DNA from: Planctomycetota bacterium | GTDB lineage: Bacteria; Planctomycetota; UBA8742; UBA2392 | Direction: 5' to 3' | Assembly: GCA_025993795.1 (NCBI GenBank) | Contig: JAMQHL010000020.1 | Coordinates: 12,471 to 76,470 of the forward strand | DNA: 64,000 nt | Shown here: positions 1,405 to 55,674 of the stretch, piece after piece | Layout of the letters: each line of letters opens with the position of its first letter | How positions within the stretch are numbered: position 1 is the first letter of the stretch | Program-made: the position numbers and the translations under genes | The notes under the pieces: model-generated | Told to the model about the DNA's origin: nothing | Databases searched by the model: none | Seen by the model: the letters and a program-made list of their open reading frames with translations, nothing else

Positions 1405-3324
1405 CTACTTCTGCGGCTTCCAGTTCTCTGCCTCAAGCTTGTCGGCATCGGTGCGCTTGACCTGCTTCAGGTTGGCCCTGGCAAAGTTCGCGCCGTCATC
1501 GCGCGAGCCGTGCAAGTCGGCCCCCAGCAGGTCTGCACCGCTGAAATCCGTAAACTGCAGGTTGGCATGGGTGAACATGGCGTACTGAGCGACTGCATTG
1601 GTAAAGCGCGCCTTCTGCGCATTGAGCCGGTCCATGAACGTCTCGCGGATGTCGGTGCCATCGAACTGCGCCTCGGTAGCGTTAGCACCCGGGAAAGCCG
1701 CCATGTGCAGCATCGCACCGCTGAACACCGCACCCTTTACGTTCGCGTTCTCAAAGTTTGCGCCGGTCAACTGCGCCGACTTGAGCACGGCCTTTTCCAG
1801 ATTCGCGTTCTTGAACGCAGCCTGCGTCAGTTCAGACCCCGACAAGTCGATGCCGGCGAGACCCGCGTCTTCGAAATCACAAAGCGTGAAACGCGATTGC
1901 GGCAGTTTCATGCCCGCCATGTTCACTGCGCGAAACTCGCAGCGCTCGTACCTGCCGCCGGCCAAGCCGACTTCGCGCAGGTCGCTGTCAGCAAAGCTAA
2001 CGCCGGTCAACTTCGCGTCTTGAAAGTCTGCACCCTTGAGGACGGCGTCAGACACATTCGACTCGTCCAGGGTCGCGCCGCGAAACGACGCGCCGGTTGC
2101 GTTGGCACCCACCAGTGTGGCACCCGAAAGGTCGGCCTGTGAAAGGTCCGCGCCGGACAGGTCGGCTGTGCTGAAGTCGGCATCGTTCAGTCGCGCACCG
2201 CGCAGCTTGGCACCGCGCAGGTTCGCGCCGTTGAAGTCGGCCCCAATCAGCGAGAAGCCCTCGAAGACAAAGCCCTGCAAGTCCACGCCATCAAACGACG
2301 CGCCGTTCAATGTGCTGCCGCTGAGCTTGAGGCCCTTGACGGTGGCGCCCGAAAACCGCGCGTCGGTCAATTCGCAATTGCTGAGGTCAAACCCGGAAAG
2401 GTCACAGTTCTCCAGCACAGCCGCGCCCAGCTTGACGCCCGCCAGCTTTGTGCCCGCCAGCTTTGCCGCATCGAAGATCGCGCCGGTGCAGTCGCTGCCG
2501 CTGAAGTCAGCGTCGGTCAGGTCTGCGTCGCGAAAGTGGACATCCTGCGCGGCACAGCCTTTAAGGTTCGCGCCCGTCAGCAGCGCACCGCGAAACGTAC
2601 TGCCCTTGAGGGCGCGGTTCGAGAAATCCGCGCCCGTAAGGTTTGCCTCGCCGTAACTGCCGCTGATCGTCGCCGGGAAGTCACGCGCGCCAGCCCAATC
2701 GCTGCTTTCCGCAATCAGGTTCTCCATGCGCGCGCTGGTCAGGGTCGCGCCGCGCAGCGTGGTTGAAATCATGACGGCACCGGTCAGGTTTGCCGATGAA
2801 AGGTTGCAGCCATCCATGACGGCCATGTTCAGGCCCGCATCGGTAAGGTCTGCGCCGCTGAAGTCAGCGTCCTGCAGGTTGCCGGTGTCAAATGACGAGT
2901 TCACAGCCCTGGCACCAGTGAACCTGGCGCCCTGCAGCTGAGCGCCCGTCAACGCGATCTCCGTCAGGTCCGCGTTGCTGAAGTCGGCGCGCGGGGCGCG
3001 TACTCCCGCCATGCCGGCCGCCGACAGATTCGCCTCGTGCAGTTGGGCACCGTCCAGGCTGACATCGGAAAAGACCGCGCCGGCAAGGTTTGCGTTGCGC
3101 AGGTTGCAGCCCTTGAGATTGCAGGACGCGAACAGGGCACCTGACAGGTCCGCGCGCGACAGGTCAGCGCCCTGAAGATTGATACCGATCAAACGCACGC
3201 CCGCAAGCCTGGCGCCCGCCAGCTTCGCCCCCGCGAGGTTGAGACTGTCGACCTGTGCGCCCGCCGGCAGCCCGCCCCCGAGGGCGTGGTCGATGAACGA
3301 CTTGTTGTCAGCAATCTGCGTCAT
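1405..3324 (-). CDS. Pentapeptide-repeat protein, 639 aa, nearly wall-to-wall A(D/N)LxX repeats
   Basis: Translation is continuous 5-residue repeats (ADLSG, ANLTG, AKLAG...), with one break near aa 205-225. The start overlaps the upstream stop as ATGA (3321-3324). Confidence 0.9.
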   Translation of the reverse strand: MTQIADNKSFIDHALGGGLPAGAQVDSLNLAGAKLAGARLAGVRLIGINLQGADLSRADLSGALFASCNLKGCNLRNANLAGAVFSDVSLDGAQLHEANLSAAGMAGVRAPRADFSNADLTEIALTGAQLQGARFTGARAVNSSFDTGNLQDADFSGADLTDAGLNMAVMDGCNLSSANLTGAVMISTTLRGATLTSARMENLIAESSDWAGARDFPATISGSYGEANLTGADFSNRALKGSTFRGALLTGANLKGCAAQDVHFRDADLTDADFSGSDCTGAIFDAAKLAGTKLAGVKLGAAVLENCDLSGFDLSNCELTDARFSGATVKGLKLSGSTLNGASFDGVDLQGFVFEGFSLIGADFNGANLRGAKLRGARLNDADFSTADLSGADLSQADLSGATLVGANATGASFRGATLDESNVSDAVLKGADFQDAKLTGVSFADSDLREVGLAGGRYERCEFRAVNMAGMKLPQSRFTLCDFEDAGLAGIDLSGSELTQAAFKNANLEKAVLKSAQLTGANFENANVKGAVFSGAMLHMAAFPGANATEAQFDGTDIRETFMDRLNAQKARFTNAVAQYAMFTHANLQFTDFSGADLLGADLHGSRDDGANFARANLKQVKRTDADKLEAENWKPQK

Positions 3325-5603
3325 TTTTCCAGCTTGGTCATCTTCAGGTTCGCGCCACCGAAATCGGCGCCCTTGGTCTTGGCGTCAAGGAACTCGGCTG
3401 CGTAGAAGTTCGACGCCACCAGCGACGCGCCGCGCAGGTCAGCCTGCTCGAGCAGCGCCTGGTGAAAGTTTGCGTTGCCGGCCTGGGCGCTGGACAGGTT
3501 GGCTTTGCGCAGCATCGCGCCGGAAAGGTCGGCCCCGAAGAAGCGCGCACCGCTGAGGTCGCTGAACTGGAACTGTGCATCTTTCAGGTTGCATTCGCTG
3601 AAGTCGGCGCCTTTGAGCGTGCTGTTTTCCCACACGCTGCCGGCGCCATTGGCGCCCTTGCACTTCGCGTTCGTGAAGTTGCTTTTCTCGCCGCCGCGGA
3701 AACCGGAAAGATCCGCCTTCTCAAACTTCGCGCCGCTGGCATCAACCTGGTCGAAACCGGAGTCCTTGAGACTTGCCCCGGTGAAATCCGCGCCCTGCAA
3801 CTGCGCGCCGGTGAAGACGCCGGCTTCAAGCTTTGCGCCGGTAAACACGGCGTTGGCAGCCTTGAGACCCGCACATATGGCGTCTTTGCCCTGCGCTCCT
3901 GCAAAACTTGCGCCTTCGGCGACGGCGTCGATCATCATGACATCGTCAAGCTTGGCATTGTCCAGTTTCGCGCCGCTGAGGTCCGCGCCGCTGAAATCAG
4001 CGTCCGTCAGGTCAGCGCCGGTCAGGTCTGCACCTGCCAGCTTGGCGCCGATAAACGACACGCCCTTGAGTTTGGCGCCCGCCAGGTTCGCGCCGCTGAG
4101 TTGCGCATCGTTGAAGTAACAATCCGTCAGGTCGGCACCGGCCAGGTCTTGCGACTCAAGCTCGCTGCCGCTGAAGTCTCCGCCCTGGGCCTCGCGCGAC
4201 TTCAGCAGGCCCATCAGGCCCTTGGTGTCGGTGGGCTTGGGCGCCTTGCCGGACTGTGCCAGCTTCATGGCGGCCTTGACGTCGGGGTCGGCCAGGATGT
4301 CAAGGTCGGCTGCGCTGATGCGTTTGGGCAGCCCCATCTCGGCGGCCAGCGGCGATGCCAGCAGCTTGTCAATCATCGACTTCAGGTCGCCCGGGCTTGC
4401 GGGTTTGGTTGCAGCCTTGGCAATGTTCAGTTCGCTGCCGATGCTGGCCTGCGCTTGAGACTCGGCCTTGGCTGCGTAGCCGTCCACCAGTTTTTCAATC
4501 CCGGAAATCTCGGCTTCCAGTTGCTTGGCGCGCTCAGCGCGGTGCGCCTTGGTTTCAACTTCTTCGGGCGCTTCGTCGCCCTCTTGCAGGGTGTCAAACA
4601 ACGGCACCAGTGCCTCCAGGGGCTGGGCCTTGCCCACGGGCTCGCTGACCACCAGCACATCGCGACACTCAAGCCAATCGCTGTCGCTGACGTCTGCGAT
4701 GCCGCGCCAGACGAGGTACATCTGCGACTTGTCGGCATCGACGTGCAGGGTGTCTAGGTTCATCGGCACTTCGCGAACGCGGGCAGGTTCGCTCTCGTTG
4801 CCTTCGCGCAGCAGCACACGCACACGCAGTCCCGGCAGGCGCGTCTTGAGCACCGCGTGATCCGCGTGAAGATTCGTCAGCTCAACCTCTTCGTCTCCGC
4901 GCAGGAAGCCTTCCAGCTGCTGGTCGGCAGGTGCCGCGTTGAAGTAGGTCCAGTCAAAGTCCTTGGGGAACGCCGGGAAGCGCTCTTTCAGCCACTTGTT
5001 GTCGTAGGTGCCCAGCTTGCCCGTGCGCAACTTCCAGGTGCGGTGAACGGGGCCGAAGCCGGCGGGCTGTGGCTTATCGCCATAGCCGGTAATCAGGCTG
5101 GTCGGCAATTCGATGTTGGGCAGGATGCCGTCTTTGGCACCCTTGCCGGCGGGGTTGGCGCCGTGCTTTGGGCCACCAAAAGCGTTGGCCCATGTCAGCG
5201 GCAGCTTCGTGAACGGCTCAATCTCTCCGACCTTGGCGAACACCATGCCCTTATGCCACACGCGATTGCCGATGCAGGCCAGCGACTTTGACCACCCGCC
5301 GACGCGAAAACTGACCGGGCAGGTCGTGGAGGCCTTGCCGCCGGGCACGTGGCAGGTGCCCGTGAGCAGCAGGTCAGCGCGCGGCTTGAACAGGGCCAGG
5401 TCGGCGTCGTACAGGCATTCCGGCACTTTGGCTTTGCTGAGCACGTCGCCCTCAAGGGCGGGTTGCGGCTCAAGCGGCTGGCACACTCCGCCGTGGACCA
5501 TGTGGAAGGCGGCCTTAACCACAAGGCTGGCCGTGTGGGCCGGGAAGTTGACCCGGCCCATCATCGGCGCGAAAGCAAAGGTTGTGCGGTTGGCGATTTC
5601 CAC
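3321..5603 (-). CDS. DUF2169 N-terminal domain fused to C-terminal pentapeptide repeats (760 aa)
   Basis: The N-terminal ~330 aa (MEIANRTTFAFAP...VVKAAF...) resemble DUF2169 T6SS adaptor proteins. Pentapeptide repeats run from about aa 470 to the end. GTG start has a GAGGGAG RBS, 21 nt after the vgrG stop. Confidence 0.8.
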   Translation of the reverse strand: MEIANRTTFAFAPMMGRVNFPAHTASLVVKAAFHMVHGGVCQPLEPQPALEGDVLSKAKVPECLYDADLALFKPRADLLLTGTCHVPGGKASTTCPVSFRVGGWSKSLACIGNRVWHKGMVFAKVGEIEPFTKLPLTWANAFGGPKHGANPAGKGAKDGILPNIELPTSLITGYGDKPQPAGFGPVHRTWKLRTGKLGTYDNKWLKERFPAFPKDFDWTYFNAAPADQQLEGFLRGDEEVELTNLHADHAVLKTRLPGLRVRVLLREGNESEPARVREVPMNLDTLHVDADKSQMYLVWRGIADVSDSDWLECRDVLVVSEPVGKAQPLEALVPLFDTLQEGDEAPEEVETKAHRAERAKQLEAEISGIEKLVDGYAAKAESQAQASIGSELNIAKAATKPASPGDLKSMIDKLLASPLAAEMGLPKRISAADLDILADPDVKAAMKLAQSGKAPKPTDTKGLMGLLKSREAQGGDFSGSELESQDLAGADLTDCYFNDAQLSGANLAGAKLKGVSFIGAKLAGADLTGADLTDADFSGADLSGAKLDNAKLDDVMMIDAVAEGASFAGAQGKDAICAGLKAANAVFTGAKLEAGVFTGAQLQGADFTGASLKDSGFDQVDASGAKFEKADLSGFRGGEKSNFTNAKCKGANGAGSVWENSTLKGADFSECNLKDAQFQFSDLSGARFFGADLSGAMLRKANLSSAQAGNANFHQALLEQADLRGASLVASNFYAAEFLDAKTKGADFGGANLKMTKLEK

Positions 5604-11339: not shown

Positions 11340-12354
11340 GTTTCCATCCTTTGAAGCGGAACGTCACGCTGCGGTCTTCGCCGCGGCTCTCGCCAAGCCA
11401 GCTGCACCAGCCAAGGCGAGTTCTAGGGGAATTCAGTTGCGCGCGCGGCACTTCATCGCCGCGCAGAATCAGCGTCAGCTCGTACTCAAGCCCGTCGCTG
11501 TTCAGCATATCGACCAGCTCACGAAGCTGTTCCTGGTCGGGCTCAGTGGGCATCAGCGCCAGGTAGTCGTCCACATGCATCGGGCCCATACGCACTTCAA
11601 AGCTGCCCGAGAGGTCGAACACCTCGCTGCCAAGCATCGCATCGCCACCCAGCGCGCAGTTGCGGACACCCAGTGTGCTGCACTGATCGGCTGGAATCGC
11701 CGCCCAGGCACCCTTGCACTGCTCAATGGCCACGGGACTTTCCGGATAATGCTCCGCCAGCAGCGCCCGAAAACTCTCGGCGCTGCGCGGCTGCTGCGTC
11801 AGAAGCCCGGCATATTCAAGCAACCGGCCCACGGGCAGAGCGCCCTGCGGCATGTGCGCCAGGTCTGCGCCCACCATGGCCAGCAGGCGTCGCGAGAAAT
11901 AGTCGTGGCCCAGCGCGTCGTACTGCACCGTGTGCCGGTACTTTTCCCAGACGCGATAGAACAGGCTGAGCAGGCGGTGGTGGAAAATGTCGATAAAGCC
12001 GCGCACCAGCCCGTCAAGCTCGTCCTCACGCAGGAAGTCTTCGGTGTAATGGCTCGGCAGTGGTGAGCTGGTGCCGTACAGGCCCATGAAGGCTACGTTG
12101 ACGCGGTAGCGCATCGTGCCGTCGGCTTGTTCGATCTCTTCGATGCTCTCGACGTCGCTGAGGGGAAAGTCCATATCCAGCACGGGGCGCAGCCGGATAC
12201 GTTCGCGCTCAGGCGGACCCTGGTGCCCGACGCGAGGGGCGCCGCCGGACATGCCCTGCAACAGACGAACCGCCTGGAAGAACGAGTAGTACCTCGCGTT
12301 CGCAAGCAGGTCTGTCGTTACAGGATCGCGCGTTTGCCAATCCGTGCCGGCCAC
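11326..12354 (-). CDS. tssG: T6SS baseplate protein TssG
   Basis: The N-terminus ...YYSFFQAVRLLQ... is typical of TssG. Position after tssF fits. Confidence 0.9.
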   Translation of the reverse strand: MAGTDWQTRDPVTTDLLANARYYSFFQAVRLLQGMSGGAPRVGHQGPPERERIRLRPVLDMDFPLSDVESIEEIEQADGTMRYRVNVAFMGLYGTSSPLPSHYTEDFLREDELDGLVRGFIDIFHHRLLSLFYRVWEKYRHTVQYDALGHDYFSRRLLAMVGADLAHMPQGALPVGRLLEYAGLLTQQPRSAESFRALLAEHYPESPVAIEQCKGAWAAIPADQCSTLGVRNCALGGDAMLGSEVFDLSGSFEVRMGPMHVDDYLALMPTEPDQEQLRELVDMLNSDGLEYELTLILRGDEVPRAQLNSPRTRLGWCSWLGESRGEDRSVTFRFKGWKHGRG

Positions 12355-14066
12355 TGGAACACCTCTGCGTGTTTTGCGCCCGTCACCTGCAGGCGCGAAT
12401 AAGCATTCAGGCTTACATACTGCGCGAAGAACTCGTTCAGCACAGACGCGAAGAAGAACACTTCGCCGTCACCGCCCAGCAATTCTTCGTCTAGTGTCAG
12501 GTCCACTTCAATGCCGCGCACCGGAAAACCGTCCAGCAGGCGCGACGCAGGCTTGGCTGCCACGGCGCTGATGCCCTCCAGCAACCGCGAGTGTGCCTGC
12601 TCTGTCTGGCGATCGATGCGCGCGCGAAAGTTGTACAGCGAGATCACGGAGCGCAGCGCATCGACACTCAGCAGCGACATGTAGTTCAGCGTCAGGTGCG
12701 AGATCAGACGCCAGTGCAGGTCGTCGCTCATCGGCGGAGGCACGGTGGCAGTCGGTCGTGCGAGATTGCGGTACTTGGCAAAGATTGGGCTGCTCTGGGT
12801 CTTCACCGAGACGTCGCCGGCATCAAGCCGTGTCGGCATCTGGCCGTTGGTTGCCAGCAGCTCGACGCTGACGGTTTCAATACTCGGTCGCGACTCCGGG
12901 TTCTGGGGGTCGATGAAGCTGAGCATCATGTCCGAGCCGTCGCCGGTGACCGATTCCTGGCGCCGCACGTGATAGAATAGCTCGTCGCGGCGCGTGCGAC
13001 GCGCCAGCTTGAACTGGGGCCGAAACTCGATTTCTTTGGCGGTGCCAAGCTCCAGCCCGTACACGCGCTCGACCGCGAATATCTCGTAGTGCCGCGGGTT
13101 CTGGCCCGCCGGGCGCAGCGTGTACTCGGTGCGGCCGCGCTGTACCCGGATCGGGTCGGCGTCGTGCTTGAACAAATTCACAGCCGGCACGCAGTTCAGC
13201 AGGATGTTGGCTTTGCTGACCGGCGGCATGTTTTCGGGCAGGCGCGTGAACTCGAAGTCGACGGTGAACAGCTTCTCGGTTTCAAACCCCACGACGCCGT
13301 CGAGGCCCGAGAGTTCGATGAACATGAACTTCTGCGGTGCCGCAAAGTACTCCTGTAGCAGGCGAAAGCCCTGGAAGCTGGGTCCCGGGCCTGACAGCAC
13401 TGCTTCGCTTTCATCAAAGCCAACGGGCCGGACGGCGCTTGCCGGCAACTCAAACTTGCGCTTGCCATCGGCGCCATCGCCCTGGCGAACAATAACCTTC
13501 TTGAGATAGCGCAGTATGGACACATACAGGCCGCGCGTGACAACCTGCTCACCGGCCAGGAACAACCGCAGGTTGCGAATGCCCAGCTTATCAAGCGGGA
13601 CCTTGCCCGGCGCCTCAAGCCTCAGGCGCAGACGTGCCGGGGCTTCGCGCCGCAGCTCTACATCCCGGACTTCGATCGGCAGCAAGTCAAAGTCATAGCA
13701 GGTGCGAAAGCGGCTGCGGGTGCCGTCCACGGGCGAGCTGTCGATTTCGATGCCGCGGGCGAGGCGCTTGAGCTCGGCGGTGGCTTTGTTGGCGTGGTCA
13801 AACTGAATGATGCAGGTAGACGGGATGGGCCGCAGGTAGTGCGGCTCGATCATCTCCATCAATGCGTGCGTGAACTCCGGCAACTCGTCGTCGAGCTTCT
13901 GGCGCAGCTTCCCGGTAAGGAATGCGAAGCCTTCCAGCATGCGCTCGACGTCGGGGTCGCTGCCGGCCTCGGCGAGAAAGCGGGCGGCTTCCGGGTTCGC
14001 GTCTGCGAACTCGCGCCCCATCTCGCGCAGGAAAACCAACTCGTCCTGGTAATACTTGTTGAACAC
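12318..14066 (-). CDS. tssF: T6SS baseplate protein TssF
   Basis: N-terminus MFNKYYQDELVFLREMGREFADANP is the canonical TssF start. The start codon is GTG. No purine-rich SD lies upstream; CCTCCTG repeats sit there instead. Confidence 0.93.
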   Translation of the reverse strand: MFNKYYQDELVFLREMGREFADANPEAARFLAEAGSDPDVERMLEGFAFLTGKLRQKLDDELPEFTHALMEMIEPHYLRPIPSTCIIQFDHANKATAELKRLARGIEIDSSPVDGTRSRFRTCYDFDLLPIEVRDVELRREAPARLRLRLEAPGKVPLDKLGIRNLRLFLAGEQVVTRGLYVSILRYLKKVIVRQGDGADGKRKFELPASAVRPVGFDESEAVLSGPGPSFQGFRLLQEYFAAPQKFMFIELSGLDGVVGFETEKLFTVDFEFTRLPENMPPVSKANILLNCVPAVNLFKHDADPIRVQRGRTEYTLRPAGQNPRHYEIFAVERVYGLELGTAKEIEFRPQFKLARRTRRDELFYHVRRQESVTGDGSDMMLSFIDPQNPESRPSIETVSVELLATNGQMPTRLDAGDVSVKTQSSPIFAKYRNLARPTATVPPPMSDDLHWRLISHLTLNYMSLLSVDALRSVISLYNFRARIDRQTEQAHSRLLEGISAVAAKPASRLLDGFPVRGIEVDLTLDEELLGGDGEVFFFASVLNEFFAQYVSLNAYSRLQVTGAKHAEVFQWPARIGKRAIL

Positions 14067-14073
14067 GGCAGTT

Positions 14074-14108
14074 CAGGAGGCAGGAAGCAGGAGGCAGGAG
14101 GCAGGAGG
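14074..14108. repeat. Heptamer tandem repeat (CAGGAGG-like x5), arm 1 flanking the four-helix-bundle gene
   Basis: Reads caggagg caggaag caggagg caggagg caggagg on the plus strand. On the minus-strand mRNA it reads CCUCCUG x5 and ends 7 nt before the tssF GTG. Confidence 0.9.
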
Positions 14109-14157
14109 TCCCGGATTCGTATGTTGTCTGGAAGTACGACTTCGGGCCTGCCCGTCC

Positions 14158-14583
14158 CTACTCTTCTTCTTGTGCGTTCTCCCGCCTTTCTTGTTGGGCC
14201 TCTCGCTCGACACTGGCAATCAATCCGCCGAGCATGCGACCAATCTCTTGAAAGCTCTCAATCATTCCGCTCGCAACATCAACTGACATGAACTTCTGGC
14301 GCGCCGCAATCTCTACCGCCGTCTCCACTTCCGCTGCTGAACCGTCTGCGTATCGCAGAAACCGCAGGTAGTCCTGCTTGCGTGACTTGCGGCGATAACC
14401 TTCCGCAATGTTCATGGGCACCGAACTGGCTGCCCGCCGCAGCTGGCTGGTCAGGCCGAGTACTTCTGCGCGAGGAAACCCACGAGTGACTGCATAAACC
14501 TGGTCTGTGGCGTCCATGCCCTTTTGCCACACTTTGAGCCCGCGAAACCCAGCTGCGCCAAGGTTATGCAACTCTCCGCTCAT
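14158..14583 (-). CDS. Four-helix-bundle protein (23S rRNA intervening-sequence / Avd-like family), inserted between tssE and tssF
   Basis: FRGLKVWQKGMDA...FPRAE...LTSQLRRAASSVPMNIAEGYRRKSRKQDYLRFLRYADGSAAEVET matches the family signature. Confidence 0.85.
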   Translation of the reverse strand: MSGELHNLGAAGFRGLKVWQKGMDATDQVYAVTRGFPRAEVLGLTSQLRRAASSVPMNIAEGYRRKSRKQDYLRFLRYADGSAAEVETAVEIAARQKFMSVDVASGMIESFQEIGRMLGGLIASVEREAQQERRENAQEEE

Positions 14584-14591
14584 GGCCTTTC

Positions 14592-14623
14592 CCTGCCTCC
14601 TGCCTCCTGCGACCTGCCTCCTG
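14592..14623. repeat. Heptamer tandem repeat (CCTCCTG-like), arm 2, inverted relative to 14074-14108
   Basis: Reads cctg cctcctg cctcctg cgacctg cctcctg on the plus strand. On the mRNA it reads CAGGAGG-type units ending 8 nt before the four-helix gene ATG and starting 5 nt after the tssE stop. Confidence 0.9.
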
Positions 14624-14628
14624 AGCTC

Positions 14629-15045
14629 CTACGCCAGCAGATTCACATGGCCTGCCGGGTCGAGCAGCGTATCGAAACTCACGTGCGTCCCGTCTTTGCT
14701 CGTCGCCAGCCTGGCGGTGATCTGGAAGCGCACCGCCAGCTTGTTGTCATCGCTTTCAATCTGCATGACCTGCACGTCTTTCAGGCGCGGCTCATAGCGT
14801 TCGATGCACATGCGAATCGCCTTCTGCATCGTGCTTAGAGATTCCGGATATGCCTGGGCGACTTCTGCCGGTGACGCAATGCCGTAGTCCATCTGCGCCG
14901 GGGCCTGGCCGGACCGCGTGTTCAGAATGCGGGCCAGATTGCCAAGGATTGAGCGAAGCAGGGCGCCGGTGTCTTCTTCCAGCGTGTGGCTGCTTACTGC
15001 CTCGGGGTTCCGTAACCGCTCGAACAGAGTTCGTTGCTGAAACAC
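14629..15045 (-). CDS. tssE: T6SS baseplate protein TssE (gp25-like)
   Basis: ...TLFERLRNPE...SILGNLARILNTR...YGI...RMCIERYEPRL... is typical of TssE. The track ORF extends to 15201 and overlaps hcp. I prefer GTG at 15045 (VFQQRTLFERL), but the start is uncertain. Confidence 0.85.
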   Translation of the reverse strand: MFQQRTLFERLRNPEAVSSHTLEEDTGALLRSILGNLARILNTRSGQAPAQMDYGIASPAEVAQAYPESLSTMQKAIRMCIERYEPRLKDVQVMQIESDDNKLAVRFQITARLATSKDGTHVSFDTLLDPAGHVNLLA

Positions 15046-15617: not shown

Positions 15618-15736
15618 GGTTATTCTCCTGGGTTCTAAATCGCCTATTTCTTACAAGTTGATCGATTCTCTTGTCTCGGTTGACTCGTCCGCGACACCAG
15701 AACCTTACCCCGTGGCAAAAATATCGACTAGACACG

Positions 15737-15755
15737 ATTGCAGAAAACTTTCCGG
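15737..15755 (-). promoter_or_regulatory. Candidate sigma-54 (-24/-12) promoter upstream of hcp
   Basis: The minus strand reads cGGaaagttttcTGCAa. GG-to-GC spacing is correct and the -12 TGCA matches. About 8 of 12 consensus positions match. It lies about 120 nt upstream of the hcp ATG in an AT-rich gap. Confidence 0.25.
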
Positions 15756-16004
15756 CATAAAAAACATCAAATTATCGTACACAGTAACTGCACAAAGCTC
15801 ACGAACGTCGGCGGCACGCTGCCAGAAATGCGCCTTCCGGGCTGCTCACAAGTTGCCCGTCTCGGCGCCGCGGTGCATGGGCGGGGCTGAGTTGCGTTGC
15901 GCGGCCCCGCACTTTGCCAGACGTTTGCCGGTCGATCTGATCTTGGTCTGCCGACCCCTTGCCTGTTTTCGTGGGCTTGGGGGCCCTGTCTCCTGCATCG
16001 CCAC

Positions 16005-35204: not shown

Positions 35205-37100
35205 CTATTCCAGAACACCCACAAGCCACAGCGACCACTCGATCACCAGCAGTCCCAGCGCAAGCCACAGCAGCAGGCCGGGCAACCAGTCGCGCAGGTC
35301 AAACGGTGCGTCAGGCGGCCCGAAGGCGGCGGTTGGTATTGCCGCCACGCGAGTAAAGGGCAGCGTTTGCTCCATGGGGTCGCTCCAGATGATTGTGAAC
35401 GGTTCGCGATCGACCCAACCCACATGCAGGTTCCAGCGCCCCGGCTGCATCGGTGCTGTCCAGTTGACGATGCCATCCGGCCCGCGCACCAGGCGCGAAC
35501 CCGGACCGCGGTAAGCGCCTTTCCATGCAGCATCGGCCGTATCAGGCGAGATCGTGAAGAAATCCTTCACGTTTCCGCTTGCGTTCACCGCCACCGGCTC
35601 GCCGGCGGGTACCAGGGGCGGAATGCGCGGCTCTTCAAGTTTCTGCACGGCCTCAAGCCAGCGCAGGATCAGCAGCAGACCCGACCGGTCCTGTAGCAGC
35701 GTGCTTTCATGCGGTACGAACCCGCTGTACAGAATTTCTTGCGGAGTGCGCTGCACCCCCACCAGCACGCCGCCGTCAATGTGGCGTGTCAGGGCGCTCA
35801 AGCTTGTCCGGACCAGCGGCCTGGCCTCGCGGGCCGAAATCAGCGAGAGGTCGGGTACTTCAAAGCCCACGTCTGTCGCATCCACCGGGGCGCGCAGGTT
35901 CGGCTCGGCACGCACCGGGGCCCCCACGTCGCCGGCATCTCCGCCCACACCCAAGAGCATGACTGCACGGGCCTGGTACTTCTCCGGCAATACCCGGTCG
36001 GCAACCAGCAGGTCGGCGCTGACCTCGTCTGTGCCGGGTACGGGGTGCGTCGCCAATTCGCGCCCGGGCAAGAAGCTGCGCAGCGCCTGCAACAGAAACG
36101 GGTTGGCTTCGCCGTCTGTGGCCGGGTAGCAGACCGCCACGCCCCCGATGCGTGCCCGCGGGGCGAGAAACGAGACTTCATCGTCGTCTGGCAAAGCATC
36201 GCCGCCGTCGGTGCTGATGCGGACTCCGTTGGCGCCCGTGATCGGCGGCAGCTCAACGCGGCGACCGCGCAACTCAACCTGCGTGCCCACGCGCACAACC
36301 GGGTCGCGCCCGCTTAACGTGGCGGCCTCGACCACCCCGCCATGCGTGTCATTCGGCGCCGGCGGCGTATAGCGCGCGGCAATCAGCGCGTCATTGTCGG
36401 CGGGCCCGCCGAACGTCTCGTAGACCAGCGGCGTGCCGCCAAGGTCAAGCGCATTCCCGAATGCGGACAATTCCGGAGCCGGCTTGGGCTGCAATTCAAG
36501 CCGTTCATCGCCAAGCCAGATCACCAGCTTACGCGGCGCGGGGCGGTCGGGCATGCCCGGCGGCGGCGCCAGGGAATCCACGGCAGTTGCCAGCGCGCGC
36601 AGATCTGGACGCGCGAAGTCTGTGGGCGGGGGCGGGCCCGGCTCGGCACCTGTGGCGCGCCAGTCACCCAGCAGCGGCTGGCCGTGCTTGAAGTGGGCCA
36701 GCACGGCACGGTCGTTCTCGCCCATAGCCGCCAGTAGCTCGCGGGCACGCACCTGTGCCAGTTCGCGACGCGTAATTTCACCGTGCTTGGCCCGCATGCT
36801 GACACTGTTGTCCTGCACGATCACAAGCAACAGCGGCCCCGGCAGCTCGTCCGGAGGGCGCTGCAAGCCGGTTGCGAACAGCACAGTCGAGGCCAGCATG
36901 GTGGTCGCAATCAGCAGCGTCAGCACCGTGCGCAGCAGGCGCTTCCAGGCGGGCGGCAGCACGCGCGCCGCCACGCGGTCCCACAATGCCGCGTGAGTCA
37001 CGCGCTGCCGGCGATAGCGACGCGCCAACAGCCACGCGACGTAGAACACCGCCAGCAGCAGGAACAGCCACAACCATTGCTCGCGCGCGAACTCAAGCAT
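35205..37100 (-). CDS. BatA-like protein (aerotolerance-regulator N-terminal domain, VWA-like, C-terminal TM)
   Basis: The N-terminal pattern MLEFAREQWLWLFLLLAVFYVAWLLARRYRRQR is typical of the BatA_N domain. 631 aa with a C-terminal TM helix. Confidence 0.7.
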   Translation of the reverse strand: MLEFAREQWLWLFLLLAVFYVAWLLARRYRRQRVTHAALWDRVAARVLPPAWKRLLRTVLTLLIATTMLASTVLFATGLQRPPDELPGPLLLVIVQDNSVSMRAKHGEITRRELAQVRARELLAAMGENDRAVLAHFKHGQPLLGDWRATGAEPGPPPPTDFARPDLRALATAVDSLAPPPGMPDRPAPRKLVIWLGDERLELQPKPAPELSAFGNALDLGGTPLVYETFGGPADNDALIAARYTPPAPNDTHGGVVEAATLSGRDPVVRVGTQVELRGRRVELPPITGANGVRISTDGGDALPDDDEVSFLAPRARIGGVAVCYPATDGEANPFLLQALRSFLPGRELATHPVPGTDEVSADLLVADRVLPEKYQARAVMLLGVGGDAGDVGAPVRAEPNLRAPVDATDVGFEVPDLSLISAREARPLVRTSLSALTRHIDGGVLVGVQRTPQEILYSGFVPHESTLLQDRSGLLLILRWLEAVQKLEEPRIPPLVPAGEPVAVNASGNVKDFFTISPDTADAAWKGAYRGPGSRLVRGPDGIVNWTAPMQPGRWNLHVGWVDREPFTIIWSDPMEQTLPFTRVAAIPTAAFGPPDAPFDLRDWLPGLLLWLALGLLVIEWSLWLVGVLE

Positions 37101-37203
37101 CGAGGCATGCTAGCAGCGACACGCCCCATTGGCTCGCCGCCATTCGCTTGCGCGATTGTGTGAACCGGCCTGTCAGGCGGGAACGGCGATACACGTCGAA
37201 ACC

Positions 37204-37231
37204 GCGTTCCGGGTTCTGCGTTCCGGGTTCT
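37204..37231. repeat. Tandem 14-nt (2 x 7) repeat gcgttccgggttct x2
   Basis: Read directly from the sequence, in the divergent intergenic region between the batA-like gene and ORF 37451. Confidence 0.85.
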
Positions 37232-37347
37232 GGGCACGAGGTGACAGATTGTTCTGCCCCACCACATTCGCGGGCGACGCTGGCGTCGCCCCGACCTGCG
37301 AATTCTGAAAATTCTTTCGCGCGCGCAAGTCGCTTTGTCGGCTGCAC

Positions 37348-37382
37348 TTCCTGCTTCCTGCGGCCTGCGTCCTGCCTCCCGC
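37348..37382. repeat. Degenerate heptamer tandem repeat (YYCCTGC x5), related to the CCTCCTG arm at 14592-14623
   Basis: Reads ttcctgc ttcctgc ggcctgc gtcctgc ctcccgc. No inverted partner arm is recognised nearby. Confidence 0.75.
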
Positions 37383-37450
37383 CACGAGAATCCTGTGTCC
37401 GCGGGTTCCTGGGGTTAAGGGGCAAGCATTGACCCCGGAGAACCCGAACC

Positions 37451-38311
37451 ATGGACCCAACCATCGACACCATCATCCGCGACCTGCTGCACGACCTCGA
37501 CGCCGCAAGCCTCGACGACTCCGTCGAAGCCGCCCGCGCGCCGCAACTTCTTGCCAAGCGCGAATCCGACGCCGCGCGGGCTGCCTACGACGCGGGCAAG
37601 ACACCGCCCGCATTCCGGGTCAGCGACAAAGTGGTCCTCAGCGCGATGGGCCGTGAGTGGATGTTTCGCGACCTGCGCTTGCACATCACAATGTTGACGC
37701 GTCAAATCACGAACACGCTGCTGGGCGACAAGTCGCCGTATAAGGACGACGTGTTGCTCAAGCTGATGGGCGACGTGAACCACATGCATCGCATCATGGA
37801 AATCCGCAACGCGATCGCCGACTTTGCGCAACCCGAGCGCATGCGCCTTCGTAAGGCAGCTCTGACAAGCAGACCCAAGCCCTCCGGCACCGCCATGCAG
37901 CGGCCGCAGTCGCCGCGGGGCGCGAGCACATATCGCGATCTTCGCCGGCACCAGGAAATGATGGGTGAATCGGTGAAGCACTGGCCGCCGGAACAGCCTG
38001 CGCCCGAGCCTGCGCCCGAGCCAGCGGCCGAGCCTTCGGTCGCGACGCAACCGAAGTACGTAGACGGCGCGACTGCCGCTGCCTACGAAGCCGAACACGA
38101 TGCATGGTTGCGCGACTTCAAGCATTGGGGCGAGAGCGGCCGCAAAGGCCCCGCGCCGAAGTTTCCGCTGCGCGTGCTGGAGTCCATGCGGATTACCGCG
38201 AAACACGAACCCCGCACCGCACTGGTCGTGCGCGACCTGGAGGAAAGACTGAAACGGTATGACGCCATGCCGCAGAGCCCGGAGGTCTCTGCCCCCGGCG
38301 CGGTCGGCTGA
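37451..38311 (+). CDS. Hypothetical protein (286 aa) with a PAPEPAPEPAAEP linker
   Basis: Strong GC3 bias and normal amino-acid composition, whereas the overlapping antisense ORF 37415-38362 is Arg-rich junk. No family recognised. Confidence 0.6.
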   Translation: MDPTIDTIIRDLLHDLDAASLDDSVEAARAPQLLAKRESDAARAAYDAGKTPPAFRVSDKVVLSAMGREWMFRDLRLHITMLTRQITNTLLGDKSPYKDDVLLKLMGDVNHMHRIMEIRNAIADFAQPERMRLRKAALTSRPKPSGTAMQRPQSPRGASTYRDLRRHQEMMGESVKHWPPEQPAPEPAPEPAAEPSVATQPKYVDGATAAAYEAEHDAWLRDFKHWGESGRKGPAPKFPLRVLESMRITAKHEPRTALVVRDLEERLKRYDAMPQSPEVSAPGAVG

Positions 38312-40451: not shown

Positions 40452-41150
40452 CTATCCCTCGTTCAACTTGCCAAACAGCAGAAGGCCCAGCGCCAGAAAC
40501 ATAGCGTCGCACACGCCCAGCAACAACACATAGGGCCAGGCCTCTGCGGCGCCACTGCCCGTGTGCAGCGCCTCAGTCGCACCGGTCGCAGCCAGAAACA
40601 CCGGGACCGTGACCGGCAGCAGCGCAATCGTCAGCAAGGCCTCGCCGCCGCGCAGGCGCCCCGTGGCCGATGCCAGCAGCACACCCAGCGCCAGAATGCC
40701 AACGTCGGCCATCAGCACCACGGCAAGCATCAGTGGTTGCGAGAAGAAGTCAAACTTCAGCATCGGCACAGCCAGCAGCACCAACAGGGCCTGCGTGATC
40801 ACCAGCCACACCAGCGTTGAGGCCAGCCGCACCAGGTAGACCAGGGCGGGGTCAAAGGGAAGCAGCATCAGCGCCGAAAAGAAGTTCTTGTTGCGGTCAG
40901 CCGCGGCCGCGCGGTTCAGCCCGACGACAGCGGCAAACCATGTGCACACCCACAGTGCAGCCAGCACGAAGCGCCGGAAGGTTTCATCGAGCGCCAACCC
41001 CTTAACGCCCAGGCCGAAGATCACAACACACAGCATCGCAAACAGGCCCATGCTGGTGATGAGCGTTTTCGTGCGCAGCTCGACGGTGAACTCGCGGCGG
41101 AGAAGGGCGACGAACGCGGGCAGGGCGGCAGGACGGGCAGTCTCGGTCAC
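40452..41150 (-). CDS. ccmB: Heme exporter protein CcmB
   Basis: FVALLRREFTVELRTKTLITSMGLF aligns with the CcmB N-terminus, with a multi-TM profile. The start is uncertain: I use GTG 41150, because the track start TTG 41207 reads through the heptamer repeat. Confidence 0.75.
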   Translation of the reverse strand: MTETARPAALPAFVALLRREFTVELRTKTLITSMGLFAMLCVVIFGLGVKGLALDETFRRFVLAALWVCTWFAAVVGLNRAAAADRNKNFFSALMLLPFDPALVYLVRLASTLVWLVITQALLVLLAVPMLKFDFFSQPLMLAVVLMADVGILALGVLLASATGRLRGGEALLTIALLPVTVPVFLAATGATEALHTGSGAAEAWPYVLLLGVCDAMFLALGLLLFGKLNEG

Positions 41151-41179
41151 AACACCACCGCAGGTCTCGGGGACCGCAG

Positions 41180-41256
41180 TGACCAATGACCAATGACCAA
41201 TGACCAATGGGACTTCGCCAGGTGCTCACTGGTAACTGGTATCTGGATCTTGGTCA
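41180..41256. repeat. Inverted pair of heptamer tandem repeats with no cargo gene: (TGACCAA)x4, 21-nt spacer, degenerate (YTGGTMW)x4
   Basis: 41180-41207 is tgaccaa x4, perfect. 41229-41256 is ctggtaa ctggtat ctggatc ttggtca, which is degenerate TTGGTCA units in the opposite orientation. Confidence 0.85.
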
Positions 41257-41289: not shown

Positions 41290-42645
41290 TTATTCGTCCA
41301 GCAGGCCGTACTGCTTTCGTTTCTCCCACAGGTTCTTGCGGCTGATGCCGAGAATCTGGGCAGCTTCTTCAATCCTGCCGTCGGTCAATTTCAGCACATT
41401 GGTGATGTGGGCAGTCTCAGCGGCGGCGACCACGTCCTTGAGCATGCGGCGGTCGTCGCCCGGTGTCGCTGCGCCCTGGGGCAGCTCGGCTGTGTAATCA
41501 CGCAGGAAGTGCTCTTTTTTCAGCACACCGCCCGCTTTTCCGAACGCGATCGCGCGCTGCACGCTGTGTTGAAGTTCGCGCACGTTGCCCGGCCAGGGGT
41601 AGACCACCAGGGCTGTCATCGCCTCGGGATCGACCTTCAACTCGCGATCGGGGCAGTAGCGCTTGATGAAATGCTCGACAAGGATCGGGATGTCGCCCTC
41701 GCGCTGTCGCAGCGGCGGCACGTGCAGGTCAATCACATTCAGACGGTGGTAAAGGTCGCGGCGGAAGTCGCCGGTCTCAACGCGCTTGAGCAGGTCAACC
41801 TTGGTGCTGGCGATGACGCGGATGTTGACCTTGATTGGCTTGTCAGCGCCGAGGCGCTCAATTTCGCGCTCCTGCAGCACGCGCAGCAGCTTGGCCTGGG
41901 TATCGACGGGCATGTCGTCGATGTCGTCAAGGTAGATGGTGCCGCCGTCGGCTTGCTCAAAACGGCCAATGCGCCGCGAGGTGGCGCCGGTGTAAGCTCC
42001 GGTCTCATGGCCGAAAAGCTCGTCTTCCAGCAGGTTGACGTTGCTGACGTGGCACGCCACCTTGATCAGCGGGCCCTTCGCGCGCGCACTGTACTGGTGC
42101 AGCACAGTCGCGATCACTTCTTTGCCCGTGCCGTTCTCTCCCTGCACCAGCACGCTGAAGTCGCTTTCTGCAACCGTCTTGATGTCCTCATACAACCGCT
42201 TCATCTGCGGGCTGCTGCCCACCATCTGGTCAATCTTGAACTCGGTTCTGACTTCCTGGACAAGCTGTTCGTACTTGCGGCCGGTGGTCTGGCCTTCGCC
42301 ATAGTTGTTGACCAGCAGCACCACGCGTTCGTTGTTGAACGGCTTTTCGATTACATCCTTGGCGCCCAGCCGCACCGCTTCCATGGCGCGGTCCACGGTT
42401 GCGTTGCCGGTGATCATGATAGCGATGACGTCGGGTACCTGCTCGCGCGCGAAACGCAGCAGGCTGATGCCGTCCACCTTGGGCATGACCAGGTCAGTGA
42501 TCATGCAGTCAAAGCGGGCCTTCTTGAGTTCGCGAATCGCCTGCTCGCCGTCTTCAACGGCAACGACCTCGTGTCCTGCGTCTTCCAGGTCTTCGGCAAG
42601 CGTCAGGCGGATGCCGCGTTCATCGTCAGCCAGCAATATGCGCAT
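41290..42645 (-). CDS. Sigma-54-dependent response regulator (NtrC family)
   Basis: Receiver domain (MRILLADDE...DCMITDLVMPKVDG), AAA+ sigma-54 activator domain (GENGTGKE, GAYTGA variant of the GAFTGA loop), and a C-terminal Fis-type HTH. I use ATG 42645. Confidence 0.9.
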   Translation of the reverse strand: MRILLADDERGIRLTLAEDLEDAGHEVVAVEDGEQAIRELKKARFDCMITDLVMPKVDGISLLRFAREQVPDVIAIMITGNATVDRAMEAVRLGAKDVIEKPFNNERVVLLVNNYGEGQTTGRKYEQLVQEVRTEFKIDQMVGSSPQMKRLYEDIKTVAESDFSVLVQGENGTGKEVIATVLHQYSARAKGPLIKVACHVSNVNLLEDELFGHETGAYTGATSRRIGRFEQADGGTIYLDDIDDMPVDTQAKLLRVLQEREIERLGADKPIKVNIRVIASTKVDLLKRVETGDFRRDLYHRLNVIDLHVPPLRQREGDIPILVEHFIKRYCPDRELKVDPEAMTALVVYPWPGNVRELQHSVQRAIAFGKAGGVLKKEHFLRDYTAELPQGAATPGDDRRMLKDVVAAAETAHITNVLKLTDGRIEEAAQILGISRKNLWEKRKQYGLLDE

Positions 42646-42785
42646 GTGTAGCGTCCGTGGTTTCCTGTCCCCGGTGCAGGGTCGAGTCGCCTCATTATCA
42701 ATGGCATTGCGGATAACGCGAGGGGCAAACCCGCGCCACGACAATCAGACGGCGCGCAGGGTCAGAGCTCCGCCGGCCCGCCCGC

Positions 42786-43956: not shown

Positions 43957-44610
43957 CTACAGGGACTTCTTGTTGAGGTAAAAGTCGATCTGTTCGTACT
44001 CTTTGTGACTCTGGCGCTCGGCCACGTCCTTGACCGTCTTGGGTGGCGGCACGATGACCTTGTCGCCGGGCTTCCAGTTGACTGGCGCCGCGACACTGTG
44101 CTTGTCGGTGGTCTGCAGAGCCTGGACCAGCCGTACGACTTCGTCGATATTGCGGCCCACGTTCAGCGGGTAGTAGATGATCGCCCGCACCGTCTGTTTG
44201 GGGTCAATCACGAACACCGCGCGCACCGTGGCGGTCTGGCTTTCGTTGGGGTGCAGCAGCCCGAACTTCTGGGCCACGGCGGTGTTCAGGTCTGCAATCA
44301 GCGGATAGTTGATTTCGACATCGAGGATCTTCTTCAGGTTCTCGCGCCACGCGAGGTGGCTGTGAATGCTGTCGATGCTCAGCCCGATCAGCTTGGTGTT
44401 CAAGGCGTCGAACTCTTTGCTGCGGCGCGCGAACTCGGTGAGTTCCGTGCTGCAAACAGGCGTAAAGTCGGCGGGGTGGCTGAACAGGACCGCCCACTTG
44501 TCGCCCTTCCACTCGCTGAATTTGAGGTTGCCTTCGGTGGTGATGGATTCGAAGTCTGGCGCTTTGTCGCCGATGCGGGGTATCCCGCGATAATCGGTTG
44601 CTTCGGTCAT
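43957..44610 (-). CDS. 1-Cys peroxiredoxin (Prx6-like)
   Basis: WAVLFSHPADFTPVCSTEL active-site motif and a Prx6-type C-terminal extension. GGAGAAGAGG RBS before ATG 44610. Confidence 0.9.
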   Translation of the reverse strand: MTEATDYRGIPRIGDKAPDFESITTEGNLKFSEWKGDKWAVLFSHPADFTPVCSTELTEFARRSKEFDALNTKLIGLSIDSIHSHLAWRENLKKILDVEINYPLIADLNTAVAQKFGLLHPNESQTATVRAVFVIDPKQTVRAIIYYPLNVGRNIDEVVRLVQALQTTDKHSVAAPVNWKPGDKVIVPPPKTVKDVAERQSHKEYEQIDFYLNKKSL

Positions 44611-54426: not shown

Positions 54427-55674
54427 GTGCGGCGTGTGACCAGTTTGGTTTTCTTCGGCTTGGCGGCAGCGCTCTGCACCGTCGTTGGTTTCGGTGTCTT
54501 TGCGACGACCGCCGATGCGCAGGCAATGCCGGTGCCCGAGGCCGAGCTTCCGGATGGCGTAAAAAACGCCGGCCAGTTCGCACCGGTCGGATGGTCACCC
54601 GGTCAGCCGCATCCCGGCGAAAAGCTGTGGGCAACCTGCGCCGCCTGCCACACCCTTTCCACCAAGAAGACGGTCGGGCCCGGTTTCGCGGGAATGTACG
54701 AGCGCGTGGCGGCGACCGGGTTTGAGGGCAAAGCGGTCCAGCAACGCCTCCTTGAGTTCATCAAAGACGTCAAGGGCGTGAAGGACCCCTACTTCATCGA
54801 GATGCAGAAGAAGGAAGGCCCCACGCCGAACGTCGATATGACGCCTCGCGGCGGGTTGGCCGACACGATTACCGACCGCCAGATCCTGGATCTGATTGAC
54901 TACATTCTTCGCAACCGGGTTCTCGACTTCGACGAAGACGCATACATGAAGAAGGTTCGCCTGGGGCGCGAGTTCGTCAGCGGGGCCCGCCACTTCAGCA
55001 ACGGCGGCCCGTCCTGTATCGGTTGCCACACCGTGGGCGCCGATGACGAACTGCGGGGCGGCAACGTCGGCGGAAACATCTCGCACACGCTGGTTGCCGC
55101 GCGCACCAACGGCGGCGACGAAAAAGACATGTACGCACAGGGGCTGTTCAACCTGCTGTCGGGCGAGGAAGCGCCGCGCATGCACCGCTACTATCGCGAC
55201 GGAGTCGGCCACCTCACCGATTCCGAGCTGGAAGCCGTGACGGCGTTCTTTGACTACCAGTTGCGGCAAGTAGGTACTGAGCGTGAGTCGAACTACCTGC
55301 CGATCTTCGCGCTGCTGCTGGCGGCACTGCTCATCCTGCTGATGGAACCAGGCCTTTACGCCAACCTGTTTGCCAAGCAAGAGAAGGAGTTCGTGGACGG
55401 CCCATACAAGCCCGAAGAGCACCATGACGACGGGCCCGCACCCCAAGCGCCAAAGACAGAAGCGCCCGAGCAGCCAAAGCCGGAAGAGGCGAAGGCAGTG
55501 ACACCGGCAGCACCCGCGGCAACGGCGCCATCTACGACCGCAGAAGAAGCTAAGCCAGAGGCGCCCGCAGATGCGACTGGAACTGCTGGCGGCGAAGAGA
55601 AGACAGAAGAGAAGACAACAGAAGAGAAGACAGAAGAGAAGACTGACGAACAGAGCGGCGAGAAGAAAGAGTAG
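54427..55674 (+). CDS. Membrane-anchored dihaem c-type cytochrome with an acidic EEKT-repeat tail
   Basis: Signal peptide, two CxxCH motifs (CAACH, CIGCH), TM helix LPIFALLLAALLILLM, and a C-terminal Pro/Glu/Lys-rich tail (EEKTEEKTTEEKTEEKT). AGGAGAAG RBS before the GTG start. Confidence 0.8.
   Translation: MRRVTSLVFFGLAAALCTVVGFGVFATTADAQAMPVPEAELPDGVKNAGQFAPVGWSPGQPHPGEKLWATCAACHTLSTKKTVGPGFAGMYERVAATGFEGKAVQQRLLEFIKDVKGVKDPYFIEMQKKEGPTPNVDMTPRGGLADTITDRQILDLIDYILRNRVLDFDEDAYMKKVRLGREFVSGARHFSNGGPSCIGCHTVGADDELRGGNVGGNISHTLVAARTNGGDEKDMYAQGLFNLLSGEEAPRMHRYYRDGVGHLTDSELEAVTAFFDYQLRQVGTERESNYLPIFALLLAALLILLMEPGLYANLFAKQEKEFVDGPYKPEEHHDDGPAPQAPKTEAPEQPKPEEAKAVTPAAPAATAPSTTAEEAKPEAPADATGTAGGEEKTEEKTTEEKTEEKTDEQSGEKKE

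Follow-up and report, generated by a model that had tools for sequence, protein, structure and literature searches.

The 64,000-nucleotide (nt) stretch of DNA from a Planctomycetota bacterium that was analysed here (hereafter the window) carries, on its minus strand, an operon for a type VI secretion system (T6SS) with the gene order tssB, tssC, hcp, tssE, a 141-amino acid (aa) open reading frame (ORF), tssF, tssG and clpV. The 141-aa ORF (14158–14583, minus strand) is located between tssE (GPW_gp25; 14629–15045, minus strand; stop codon at 14629–14631) and tssF (12318–14066, minus strand), and is enclosed by two inverted arrays of tandem heptamers. Profile searches identified its product as a member of the four-helix-bundle (4HB) family PF05635 (E-value 4.6e-32; 110.8 bits, cut-off 33.8), and the score against TIGR02436 was also above the cut-off (E-value 1.8e-31; 108.6 bits, cut-off 24). 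The ORF also matched the structure of XCC0516 (PDB 2GSC) with an E-value of 2.5e-18. The RxxxSxxxNxxE motif described for the family (PMC3936711) is present in the protein, and in the family alignment its residues R50, S54, N58 and E61 are invariant or nearly so. No PADLOC defence family or other enzymatic annotation was found for the 4HB protein, and no Rfam family was found in the cassette region or elsewhere in the 64-kb window. All called genes within approximately 6 kb of the 4HB gene are T6SS genes. The cassette is oriented in the same direction as the operon and fits too tightly between its neighbours to leave room for a promoter.

In the mRNA, the 5′ arm of the cassette (14592–14627, minus strand) consists of AGCUC followed by approximately 4.6 heptamers of the CAGGAGG type, the second of which is a variant (CAGGUCG). 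The 3′ arm (14070–14108, minus strand) consists of five CCUCCUG-type heptamers, including the variant unit CUUCCUG, and ends in AACU. Tandem Repeats Finder reported CAGGAGG ×5.0 at 14074–14108 and a 7-mer ×4.6 at 14592–14623. An earlier note on this DNA, made from the letters alone, had described a 141-aa 4HB gene bracketed by heptamers between tssE and tssF, and both the profile matches and the repeat calls bear this out. The spacings that it gave are also correct: the tssE stop codon is 5 nt from the 5′ arm, the 5′ arm is 8 nt from the ATG of the 4HB gene, and the 3′ arm is 7 nt from the GTG start codon of tssF, which is not preceded by a purine-rich Shine–Dalgarno (SD) sequence. The sole SD-like sequence of the 4HB gene lies in the 5′ arm. 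As intergenic, head-to-tail 7-nt units in at least four copies, the arms qualify as heptanucleotide repeats. The 14-mer CAGGAGGCAGGAGG occurs nine times in the window with up to two mismatches, compared with 0.71 expected copies, and none of 100 shuffled sequences reached nine. No target-site duplication is visible at the ends of the arms.

The segments 14070–14105 and 14592–14627 form an inverted repeat of 36 nt with 92% complementarity. The two arms were paired in the minimum-free-energy fold of 14050–14650 (minus strand; z −2.85), in agreement with the pairing proposed in the earlier note. The arm duplex alone, composed of 12 bp, a 2×2 internal loop and approximately 20 bp, had a free energy of −81.6 kcal/mol, compared with −42 ± 5 kcal/mol for shuffled arms. 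The additional imperfect hairpin that had been pointed out at 14110–14146 (minus strand), in the 3′ untranslated region (UTR) of the cassette, was present in the fold; it was no more stable than shuffled sequences (z −0.31).

The same locus was compared in relatives of the window. An identical cassette, including the arms, was detected on at least 10 metagenome contigs. In a metagenome-assembled genome (MAG) labelled “Planctomycetes bacterium” (GCA_020849795.1, locus L014), the host proteins of which are 97–99% identical to those of the window, the tssE|tssF cassette is accompanied by a second 4HB cassette at tssC|hcp, the arms of which are built from the same type of unit. A more distant locus, L016 (host proteins 75–88% identical), has a 4HB cassette at tssC|hcp, and its tssE|tssF junction contains only CAGGNGG/CCTNCTG arms, which fold around a loop of approximately 85 nt that holds no gene. 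The 4HB paralogues of the two slots share 68–72% identity, and the tssC|hcp orthologues share 75%. In the window, a second cassette has been lost from the tssC–hcp spacer (15618–16004). What is left at 15984–15996 is a stub of two units, GCAGGAGACAGGG, with homology to the 5′ arm that the tssC|hcp cassette has in L014 and L016; it is followed by approximately 170 nt of unrelated GC-rich sequence, after which homology to L014 returns at TGTGCAGTT. The difference in slot filling among L014, L016 and the window indicates that the cargo turns over rapidly and that the arms can persist.

Between the window and L014, the dN/dS ratio of the 4HB gene was 0.166 at a dS of 0.31, and those of the T6SS genes were 0.025–0.038 at dS values of 0.21–0.44. 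A ratio this low, together with a dS like that of its neighbours, indicates that the 4HB gene is functional, under purifying selection, and has descended vertically with the operon since the window and L014 split. The core arms differed by one change in approximately 75 nt, with no change in copy number and an identical 3′ arm, which is well below the synonymous divergence, and two of the 91 positions of the cassette 3′ UTR differed, both substitutions falling in the imperfect hairpin. One arm position showed a compensatory change, being A:U in the window and C:G in L016, with the intermediate C:U in L014. By these measures, constraint acts on the arms as well as on the 4HB gene.

Related T6SS loci were collected by alignment to TssC; a scan of metagenome contigs with TssE alone gave no confirmed match. 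The 4HB gene was present in none of 80 metagenomic T6SS loci in which TssC was 68–88% identical. As to whether tssE and tssF are contiguous in relatives, a question that the earlier note had raised, the tssE–tssF spacer ranged from 2 to 276 nt, and was 24 nt or shorter and lacked a hairpin in 17 of 39 loci. At least six related loci carry cargo-less, repeat-armed hairpins at tssE|tssF. In L097, TAGGTTG ×5 and CCTACNA ×4 form a 19-bp perfect stem (z −4.8) without a gene, and in L099 the cargo-less repeat is CAAAATT ×4; further examples were found in L135, L119/L130 and L137. The tssE|tssF slot thus holds arms that differ and yet are complementary in the window, L016 and L097, and the start codon of tssF itself differs among these three loci (GTG, TTG and ATG, respectively). 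The earlier note had stated that repeats at this junction without cargo would weaken its model, and they do occur, as arms of the same type in L016 and as other repeat-armed hairpins in L097 and L099, which makes the arms independent of the cargo. In L097, the closest cargo-less T6SS relative, GTTGTCR and GACAACT arrays flank tssB (2718–3396 of that locus); a hairpin precedes tssB, and a third array separates tssB from tssC. Ordinary operon genes, too, can thus be enclosed by heptamer arrays.

Beyond the T6SS, 80 loci carrying 4HB relatives (40–56% identical) were taken from GTDB species genomes, including Acidobacteriota, Planctomycetota, Chloroflexota, Alpha-, Delta- and Gammaproteobacteria and Omnitrophota. 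In 78 of these loci, the 100 nt preceding the gene were scored for complementarity to the 160 nt following it. The median score was 13.5, compared with 7 for cross-locus pairs, and 31 of the 78 loci lay above the 99th percentile of the cross-locus control. A score of at least 14 was reached by 50% of the 4HB genes, compared with 0.3% of 630 neighbouring genes at the same loci, which corresponds to an approximately 150-fold enrichment. The flanks showed an autocorrelation of 0.37 at lag 7, against approximately 0.26 at other lags, and the metaprofile of 7-nt periodicity, otherwise flat over ±2 kb, had one sharp maximum at −40 relative to the start codon and another at +20 relative to the stop codon. 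Arrays of period 7 numbered 257 in 1.38 Mb, compared with 15–40 for each of the periods 5, 8, 10 and 11, and were typically four to five units long. Inverted heptamer arms are thus a trait of the 4HB family, found at approximately half of the 78 genes, and the cassette of the window shares its anatomy with cassettes across the family.

Where arms occur, they are almost always tandem heptamers, and the sequence of the unit is specific to each cassette (AGTAGCC, AGTGGTC, GGCAATG, ATGGTGA, CGGCAGT and AGGCACT, among others) and differs even among copies in one contig or genome (L087 and L044), so that a single genome-wide arm sequence was rejected. The claim in the earlier note that the arms resemble SD and anti-SD sequences is accordingly true of the window but not of the family, in which other cassettes use units such as AGTAGCC, GGCAATG, ATGGTGA and CGGCAGT; the resemblance is incidental to the lineage of the window. 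In 24 of 28 loci, the upstream and downstream units were reverse complements of each other, compared with 6.6% of cross-locus pairs, and variant units were mirrored across the arms (61/65 in L036 and 31/32 in L050). The units share a core, C-A-G-T-N-G-Y, with an information content of 4.52 bits, compared with 2.87 ± 0.14 bits for shuffled units (none of 200 shuffles reached the observed value), which the window unit CAGGAGG fits as CAGNNGN; in arrays that do not adjoin a 4HB gene the CAGT core is weak. Approximately 25 cargo-less inverted heptamer hairpins were found elsewhere in the fetched loci, 14 of 22 between co-directional genes, and in L050, L069, L083, L091 and L065 a 4HB gene with arms is found near cargo-less hairpins of the same unit type. 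The G-rich arm comes first in 29 cassettes and second in 7 (p 3e-4), and in 13 versus 2 cargo-less hairpins. Because an inverted repeat reads alike on both strands, this bias is a property of the repeat type, and its use as evidence for orientation relative to transcription was rejected. It is compatible with avoidance of an exposed C-rich, Rho-loading segment, but is not diagnostic.

Of 73 loci, 62 have the upstream neighbour on the strand of the 4HB gene, and in 47 of 70 loci both flanking genes run in its direction. The 5′ arm starts at a median of 3 nt past the upstream stop codon, and a median of 11.5 nt separates the 3′ arm from the next start codon, so that the 5 and 7 nt of the window are typical of the family. 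The host operons are mutually unrelated and mostly encode multi-subunit machines; the junctions include those between por genes (pyruvate:ferredoxin oxidoreductase subunits), macB|macB, nuoC|nuoD and cas6|cas4, and acc and nrd operons are also among the hosts. Two nuoC|nuoD cassettes, both from Hyphomicrobiales, in Pseudaminobacter salicylatoxidans DSM 6986 (L025, 5920–6425) and in a MAG (L085, 5190–5705), have wholly different arm units (ATGGTGA and CGGCAGT, respectively) that are complementary within each cassette; in the former, the nuoC stop codon and the ATG of the 4HB gene both lie within the array. Heptamer-flanked 4HB genes are also present on plasmids of Nostoc, Calothrix and Anabaena, with AGTAGGG ×8 / CCCTACT ×5 on Nostoc edaphicum pNe_5 and GGGTGTA ×4 / CTACACC ×4 on Calothrix brevissima plasmid1. 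On plasmid pANA02 of Anabaena sp. 90 (L178; NC_019429.1, approximately 44220–44265), the cassette lies between cas6 and cas4, and the annotated cas4 start is placed upstream of the 3′ arm, CTGTCAC ×4; the true start is probably the ATG approximately 5 nt past the array. This case suggests a systematic misplacement of the annotated starts of genes that follow such cassettes. For Xanthomonas, Rehm et al. 2015 list in a supplementary table a GGGAATC ×4 array between bccP (XCC0517), from which it is separated by 6 nt, and the 4HB gene XCC0516, into the start of which it extends. The structure that defines the family, PDB 2GSC, is that of XCC0516, a connection with the array that was not drawn in that study. 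In a viral collection of 2.9 million contigs, just four 4HB matches were obtained, and carriage by phages was rejected on this count; these four were also flanked by heptamers.

These data establish a bounded, conserved, operon-embedded cassette with the inverted heptamer arms typical of its family; the IVS-like cassette in an mRNA operon that the earlier note had proposed, after the intervening sequences (IVSs) of 23S rRNA, is in this respect real. We further propose, with moderate confidence, that 14070–14627 of the window is a hairpin-enclosed 4HB cassette that represents the mRNA-operon counterpart of the ORF-bearing 23S IVSs, its arms pairing in the transcript. In the polycistronic mRNA the cassette would be looped out by the paired arms, and the stem (approximately 36 bp, approximately −80 kcal/mol) brings, at its base, the tssE stop codon beside the SD-less GTG of tssF. 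The tight geometry of stop codon, stem and start codon, in the window and in the family, suggests that the interrupted cistrons are coupled, in which case tssE and tssF would stay translationally coupled across the stem. A ribosome ending 3–5 nt before the stem would melt its base and unmask the downstream start; this would be the sole evident way to translate tssF. Since the only SD-like sequence of the 4HB gene is in the 5′ arm, its translation should compete with stem formation and would be confined to molecules in which that arm is unpaired. The long, near-perfect double-stranded RNA of the arm stem is probably a substrate of RNase III, an enzyme known to cut the related IVSs of Coxiella and Leptospira, and such processing is plausible. 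The cassette would then be a passenger, tolerated and passed on vertically, that carries its own insulator, and not a component of the T6SS.

Several observations weigh against this proposal. Mismatches of the G-U type expected if pairing acts in the sense transcript numbered 50 in the arms, compared with 36 of the antisense type (p 0.16, a comparison of low power given that the arms are near-perfect), and the sense hairpin was the more stable in 21 loci and the antisense hairpin in 18. This lack of strand asymmetry means that pairing could matter equally at the DNA level. The strict 7-nt periodicity and the CAGTNGY core are not explained by the bare need for a stem, and point to a sequence-specific partner or a common origin of the arrays; this keeps alive the readings in which the element moves as DNA or the hairpin belongs to the host. 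The arms persist without cargo in relatives, and may therefore be part of the host operon or of an independent repeat system. Finally, the tssF start would be hidden once the stem has formed, and a cut by RNase III would leave tssF without an SD.

One alternative to the transcript-level cassette is a mobile element acting at the DNA level, of the foldback, miniature inverted-repeat transposable element (MITE) or REPIN-RAYT type, in which the arrays would be terminal repeats, the 4HB protein a trans-acting mobility or maintenance factor, and the cargo-less hairpins non-autonomous derivatives. We regard this as unlikely, although several observations are consistent with it: repeat-flanked 4HB genes co-occur with nearby cargo-less hairpins of the same unit type in the five loci named above, the core that the units share, repeated every 7 nt, hints at a factor that binds in a sequence-specific manner, pairing has no strand asymmetry, and the slots differ in occupancy, with tssC|hcp filled in L014 and L016 and lost in the window, and tssE|tssF filled in the window and L014 and reduced to arms in L016. 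However, the 4HB family has no known recombinase or nuclease domain, no PADLOC or other enzymatic match was found, and target-site duplications are not evident. Arms that differ between copies in one genome are unlike the terminal repeats of transposase families, and a dS equal to that of the neighbouring genes indicates vertical descent since the window and L014 split. Furthermore, the loss at tssC|hcp in the window was an untidy replacement and not an excision, and matches among the viral contigs were very few. A second alternative, to which we assign a similarly low probability, is that the hairpin at tssE|tssF is an older feature of the T6SS lineage, serving mRNA stability, processing or coupling, and that the 4HB gene entered its loop later as a passenger, the tssC|hcp cassette being one possible donor in a recombination between the similar arms. 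The cargo-less hairpins at this junction in L016, L097, L099, L135, L119/L130 and L137, the GTTGTCR arrays around tssB in L097, and a cargo-less hairpin in the window itself (41180–41256) are consistent with this, as is the identity of the two paralogues, barely below that of the tssC|hcp orthologues. By contrast, the 17 loci with a short spacer and no hairpin show that the operon can do without it, and the alternative leaves unexplained both the association of 4HB genes with arms across unrelated operons and the much weaker CAGT core in arrays away from 4HB genes.

A direct function of the 4HB protein in secretion, as a T6SS accessory or regulator for which the repeats would merely supply a strong ribosome-binding site and a 3′ structure, appears very improbable. 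The gene is kept in the operon in the window, L014 and 10 or more metagenome contigs, shows purifying selection, and has a second copy at tssC|hcp in the T6SS operons of L014 and L016. Nevertheless, its absence from all 80 related loci led us to reject a T6SS-specific role; homologous cassettes occupy nuo, por, macB, cas, acc and nrd operons, and the arms of most cassettes are not SD-like. Little can be said for repeats that arose by chance or replication slippage and have no function. Heptanucleotide repeats are indeed described as the most frequent long simple-sequence repeats of many bacteria and attributed to polymerase slippage, in passages of PMC4692102 and PMC4679880 that cite Mrazek 2007, but the excess of the 14-mer in the window, the mirroring of variant units between arms, the single substitution without copy-number change despite a dS of approximately 0.3, and the enrichment of complementary flanks around 4HB genes effectively refute this explanation. 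A more speculative extension, which we consider possible but doubtful, addresses the periodicity itself. The 4HB protein assembles into a pentameric toroid (Lin 2006, cited in PMC4990558), and it might bind tandem heptamers sequence-specifically, one CAGTNGY-type unit per subunit (four to five per array), in a manner similar to TRAP; protein and arrays would then constitute a widespread, unrecognised class of operon-embedded element, with the arm-only hairpins as non-autonomous members.

Other repeats were also observed in the window. The only other array of the arm-unit type is a solo array at 37347–37381 (CTTCCTG/CGTCCTG-type, complementary to the unit of the T6SS arms), which lies with a CGGGTTC-type array (37202–37232) and a GAACCCG-type array (37442–37468), all direct, in a divergent intergenic region between ORFs at 35205–37100 (minus strand) and 37451–38311 (plus strand). 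These arrays were rejected as a further cassette, because no convincing inverted partner or cargo was found. The cargo-less hairpin at 41180–41256 is located in the spacer of two minus-strand ORFs (40452–41207 and 41290–42744) and consists of a perfect TGACCAA ×4.3 array, an 18-nt loop and ACTGGTA/CTGGTAT-type units; it folds on both strands (z approximately −2.5). Its unit TGACCAA is the reverse complement of TTGGTCA, the unit of the cyanobacterial short tandemly repeated repetitive (STRR) sequence STRR2. Tandem Repeats Finder also reported repeats at 55442–55643 with periods of 24 (×1.9) and 12 (GAAGAGAAGACA ×3.9).

The IVS-encoded protein has been known since 1993 and over-represented heptanucleotide tandem repeats since 1990. 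The function of the former and the purpose of the latter in cyanobacteria, Xanthomonas and other bacteria are two old loose ends that may have one answer. If the 4HB protein does bind heptamers, the STRR, GGGAATC and TAACTGA repeats would gain a molecular partner and the IVS-encoded protein a function. Both questions can be tested in culturable strains, namely Xanthomonas campestris ATCC 33913 (accB|XCC0516), P. salicylatoxidans DSM 6986 (nuoC|4HB|nuoD), Nostoc and Anabaena. For annotation, the consequence is that start codons of downstream genes are miscalled across arrays, as for cas4 of Anabaena sp. 90. The presence of a 4HB gene inside cas operons was noted earlier and read as a functional association (PMC3936711); such guilt-by-association calls, for example of a 4HB role in CRISPR-Cas, are probably artefacts of operon insertion. 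Heptamer repeats themselves and 4HB genes in cas operons were already known, whereas no description of the gene-plus-heptamer-arm architecture in mRNA operons was found in the literature that was searched.

The arms resemble the known bacterial heptanucleotide repeats, namely the cyanobacterial STRR, the GGGAATC repeats of Xanthomonas and the TAACTGA repeats of Beggiatoa and cyanobacteria. Such repeats are intergenic tandem 7-mers, mostly of approximately four units and frequently in convergent inverted pairs, of which Xanthomonas campestris pv. campestris has 70 (PMC4692102), and they abut start codons (PMC4679880). The papers on such repeats treat them as G-quadruplex or regulator-binding elements and do not link them to a 4HB or IVS gene, and our full-text searches found no literature that connects the 4HB/S23p/IVS protein with heptamer repeats, although database descriptions and subscription journals may mention it. 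The reverse complement of the TAACTGA unit contains the CAGT core, as do the 4HB arms. STRR1 and STRR3 also contain this core.

Inverted-repeat hairpins in intercistronic regions of operons are likewise formed by the Correia elements of Neisseria, REP/BIME and ERIC sequences, and Correia hairpins are substrates of RNase III. RAYT genes are flanked by inverted REPs that also occur dispersed as cargo-less hairpins. MITE, REP and REPIN-RAYT systems, however, have a repeat that is conserved genome-wide and known or suspected transposases, whereas the arms described here are cassette-specific and heptameric and no catalytic activity is known for the protein encoded between them. Eukaryotic Foldback elements have long terminal inverted repeats composed of short tandem subrepeats around a loop that is empty or coding; being eukaryotic, of kilobase scale and mobilised by a transposase, they imply no homology. 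The 4HB protein is also related in fold to Avd of the diversity-generating retroelements (DGRs), matching PF22296 with an E-value of 8e-7 and NF033474 with an E-value of 2e-7. Avd has a four-helix-bundle fold and a pentameric assembly (PMC10053308). The NF033474 score of 31.2 bits is, however, below the curated Avd cut-off of 80, the neighbours are T6SS genes, and no reverse transcriptase or template/variable repeat is located nearby, so that identity as a DGR or Avd was rejected.

The nearest counterpart is the 23S rRNA IVS of Leptospira, Coxiella and Brucella. The two differ in their hosts, which are helix 9, 25 or 45 of the 23S rRNA for the IVS and the tssE|tssF junction of a protein-coding operon for the cassette; a 23S context for the cassette was rejected on the basis of this location and the lack of Rfam matches, and no 23S motif or gene context was found at any of 96 loci. 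The arms of the cassette are tandem heptamers, unlike those of the 23S IVS, and its ORF is under purifying selection, whereas that of the Coxiella IVS is decaying and untranslated. Excision by RNase III has been demonstrated for the IVS and is predicted for the cassette. 23S IVSs are 428–444 nt long and exist with and without an ORF, and that of Coxiella has a 28-bp terminal inverted-repeat stem around the S23p ORF that is cut by RNase III (PMC4990558). The cassette of the window, at 558 nt, has the same kind of terminal stem in its 36-nt, 92% complementary arms, and shares with the IVS both the family of its protein, PF05635, and the sense orientation of its ORF within the host transcript.

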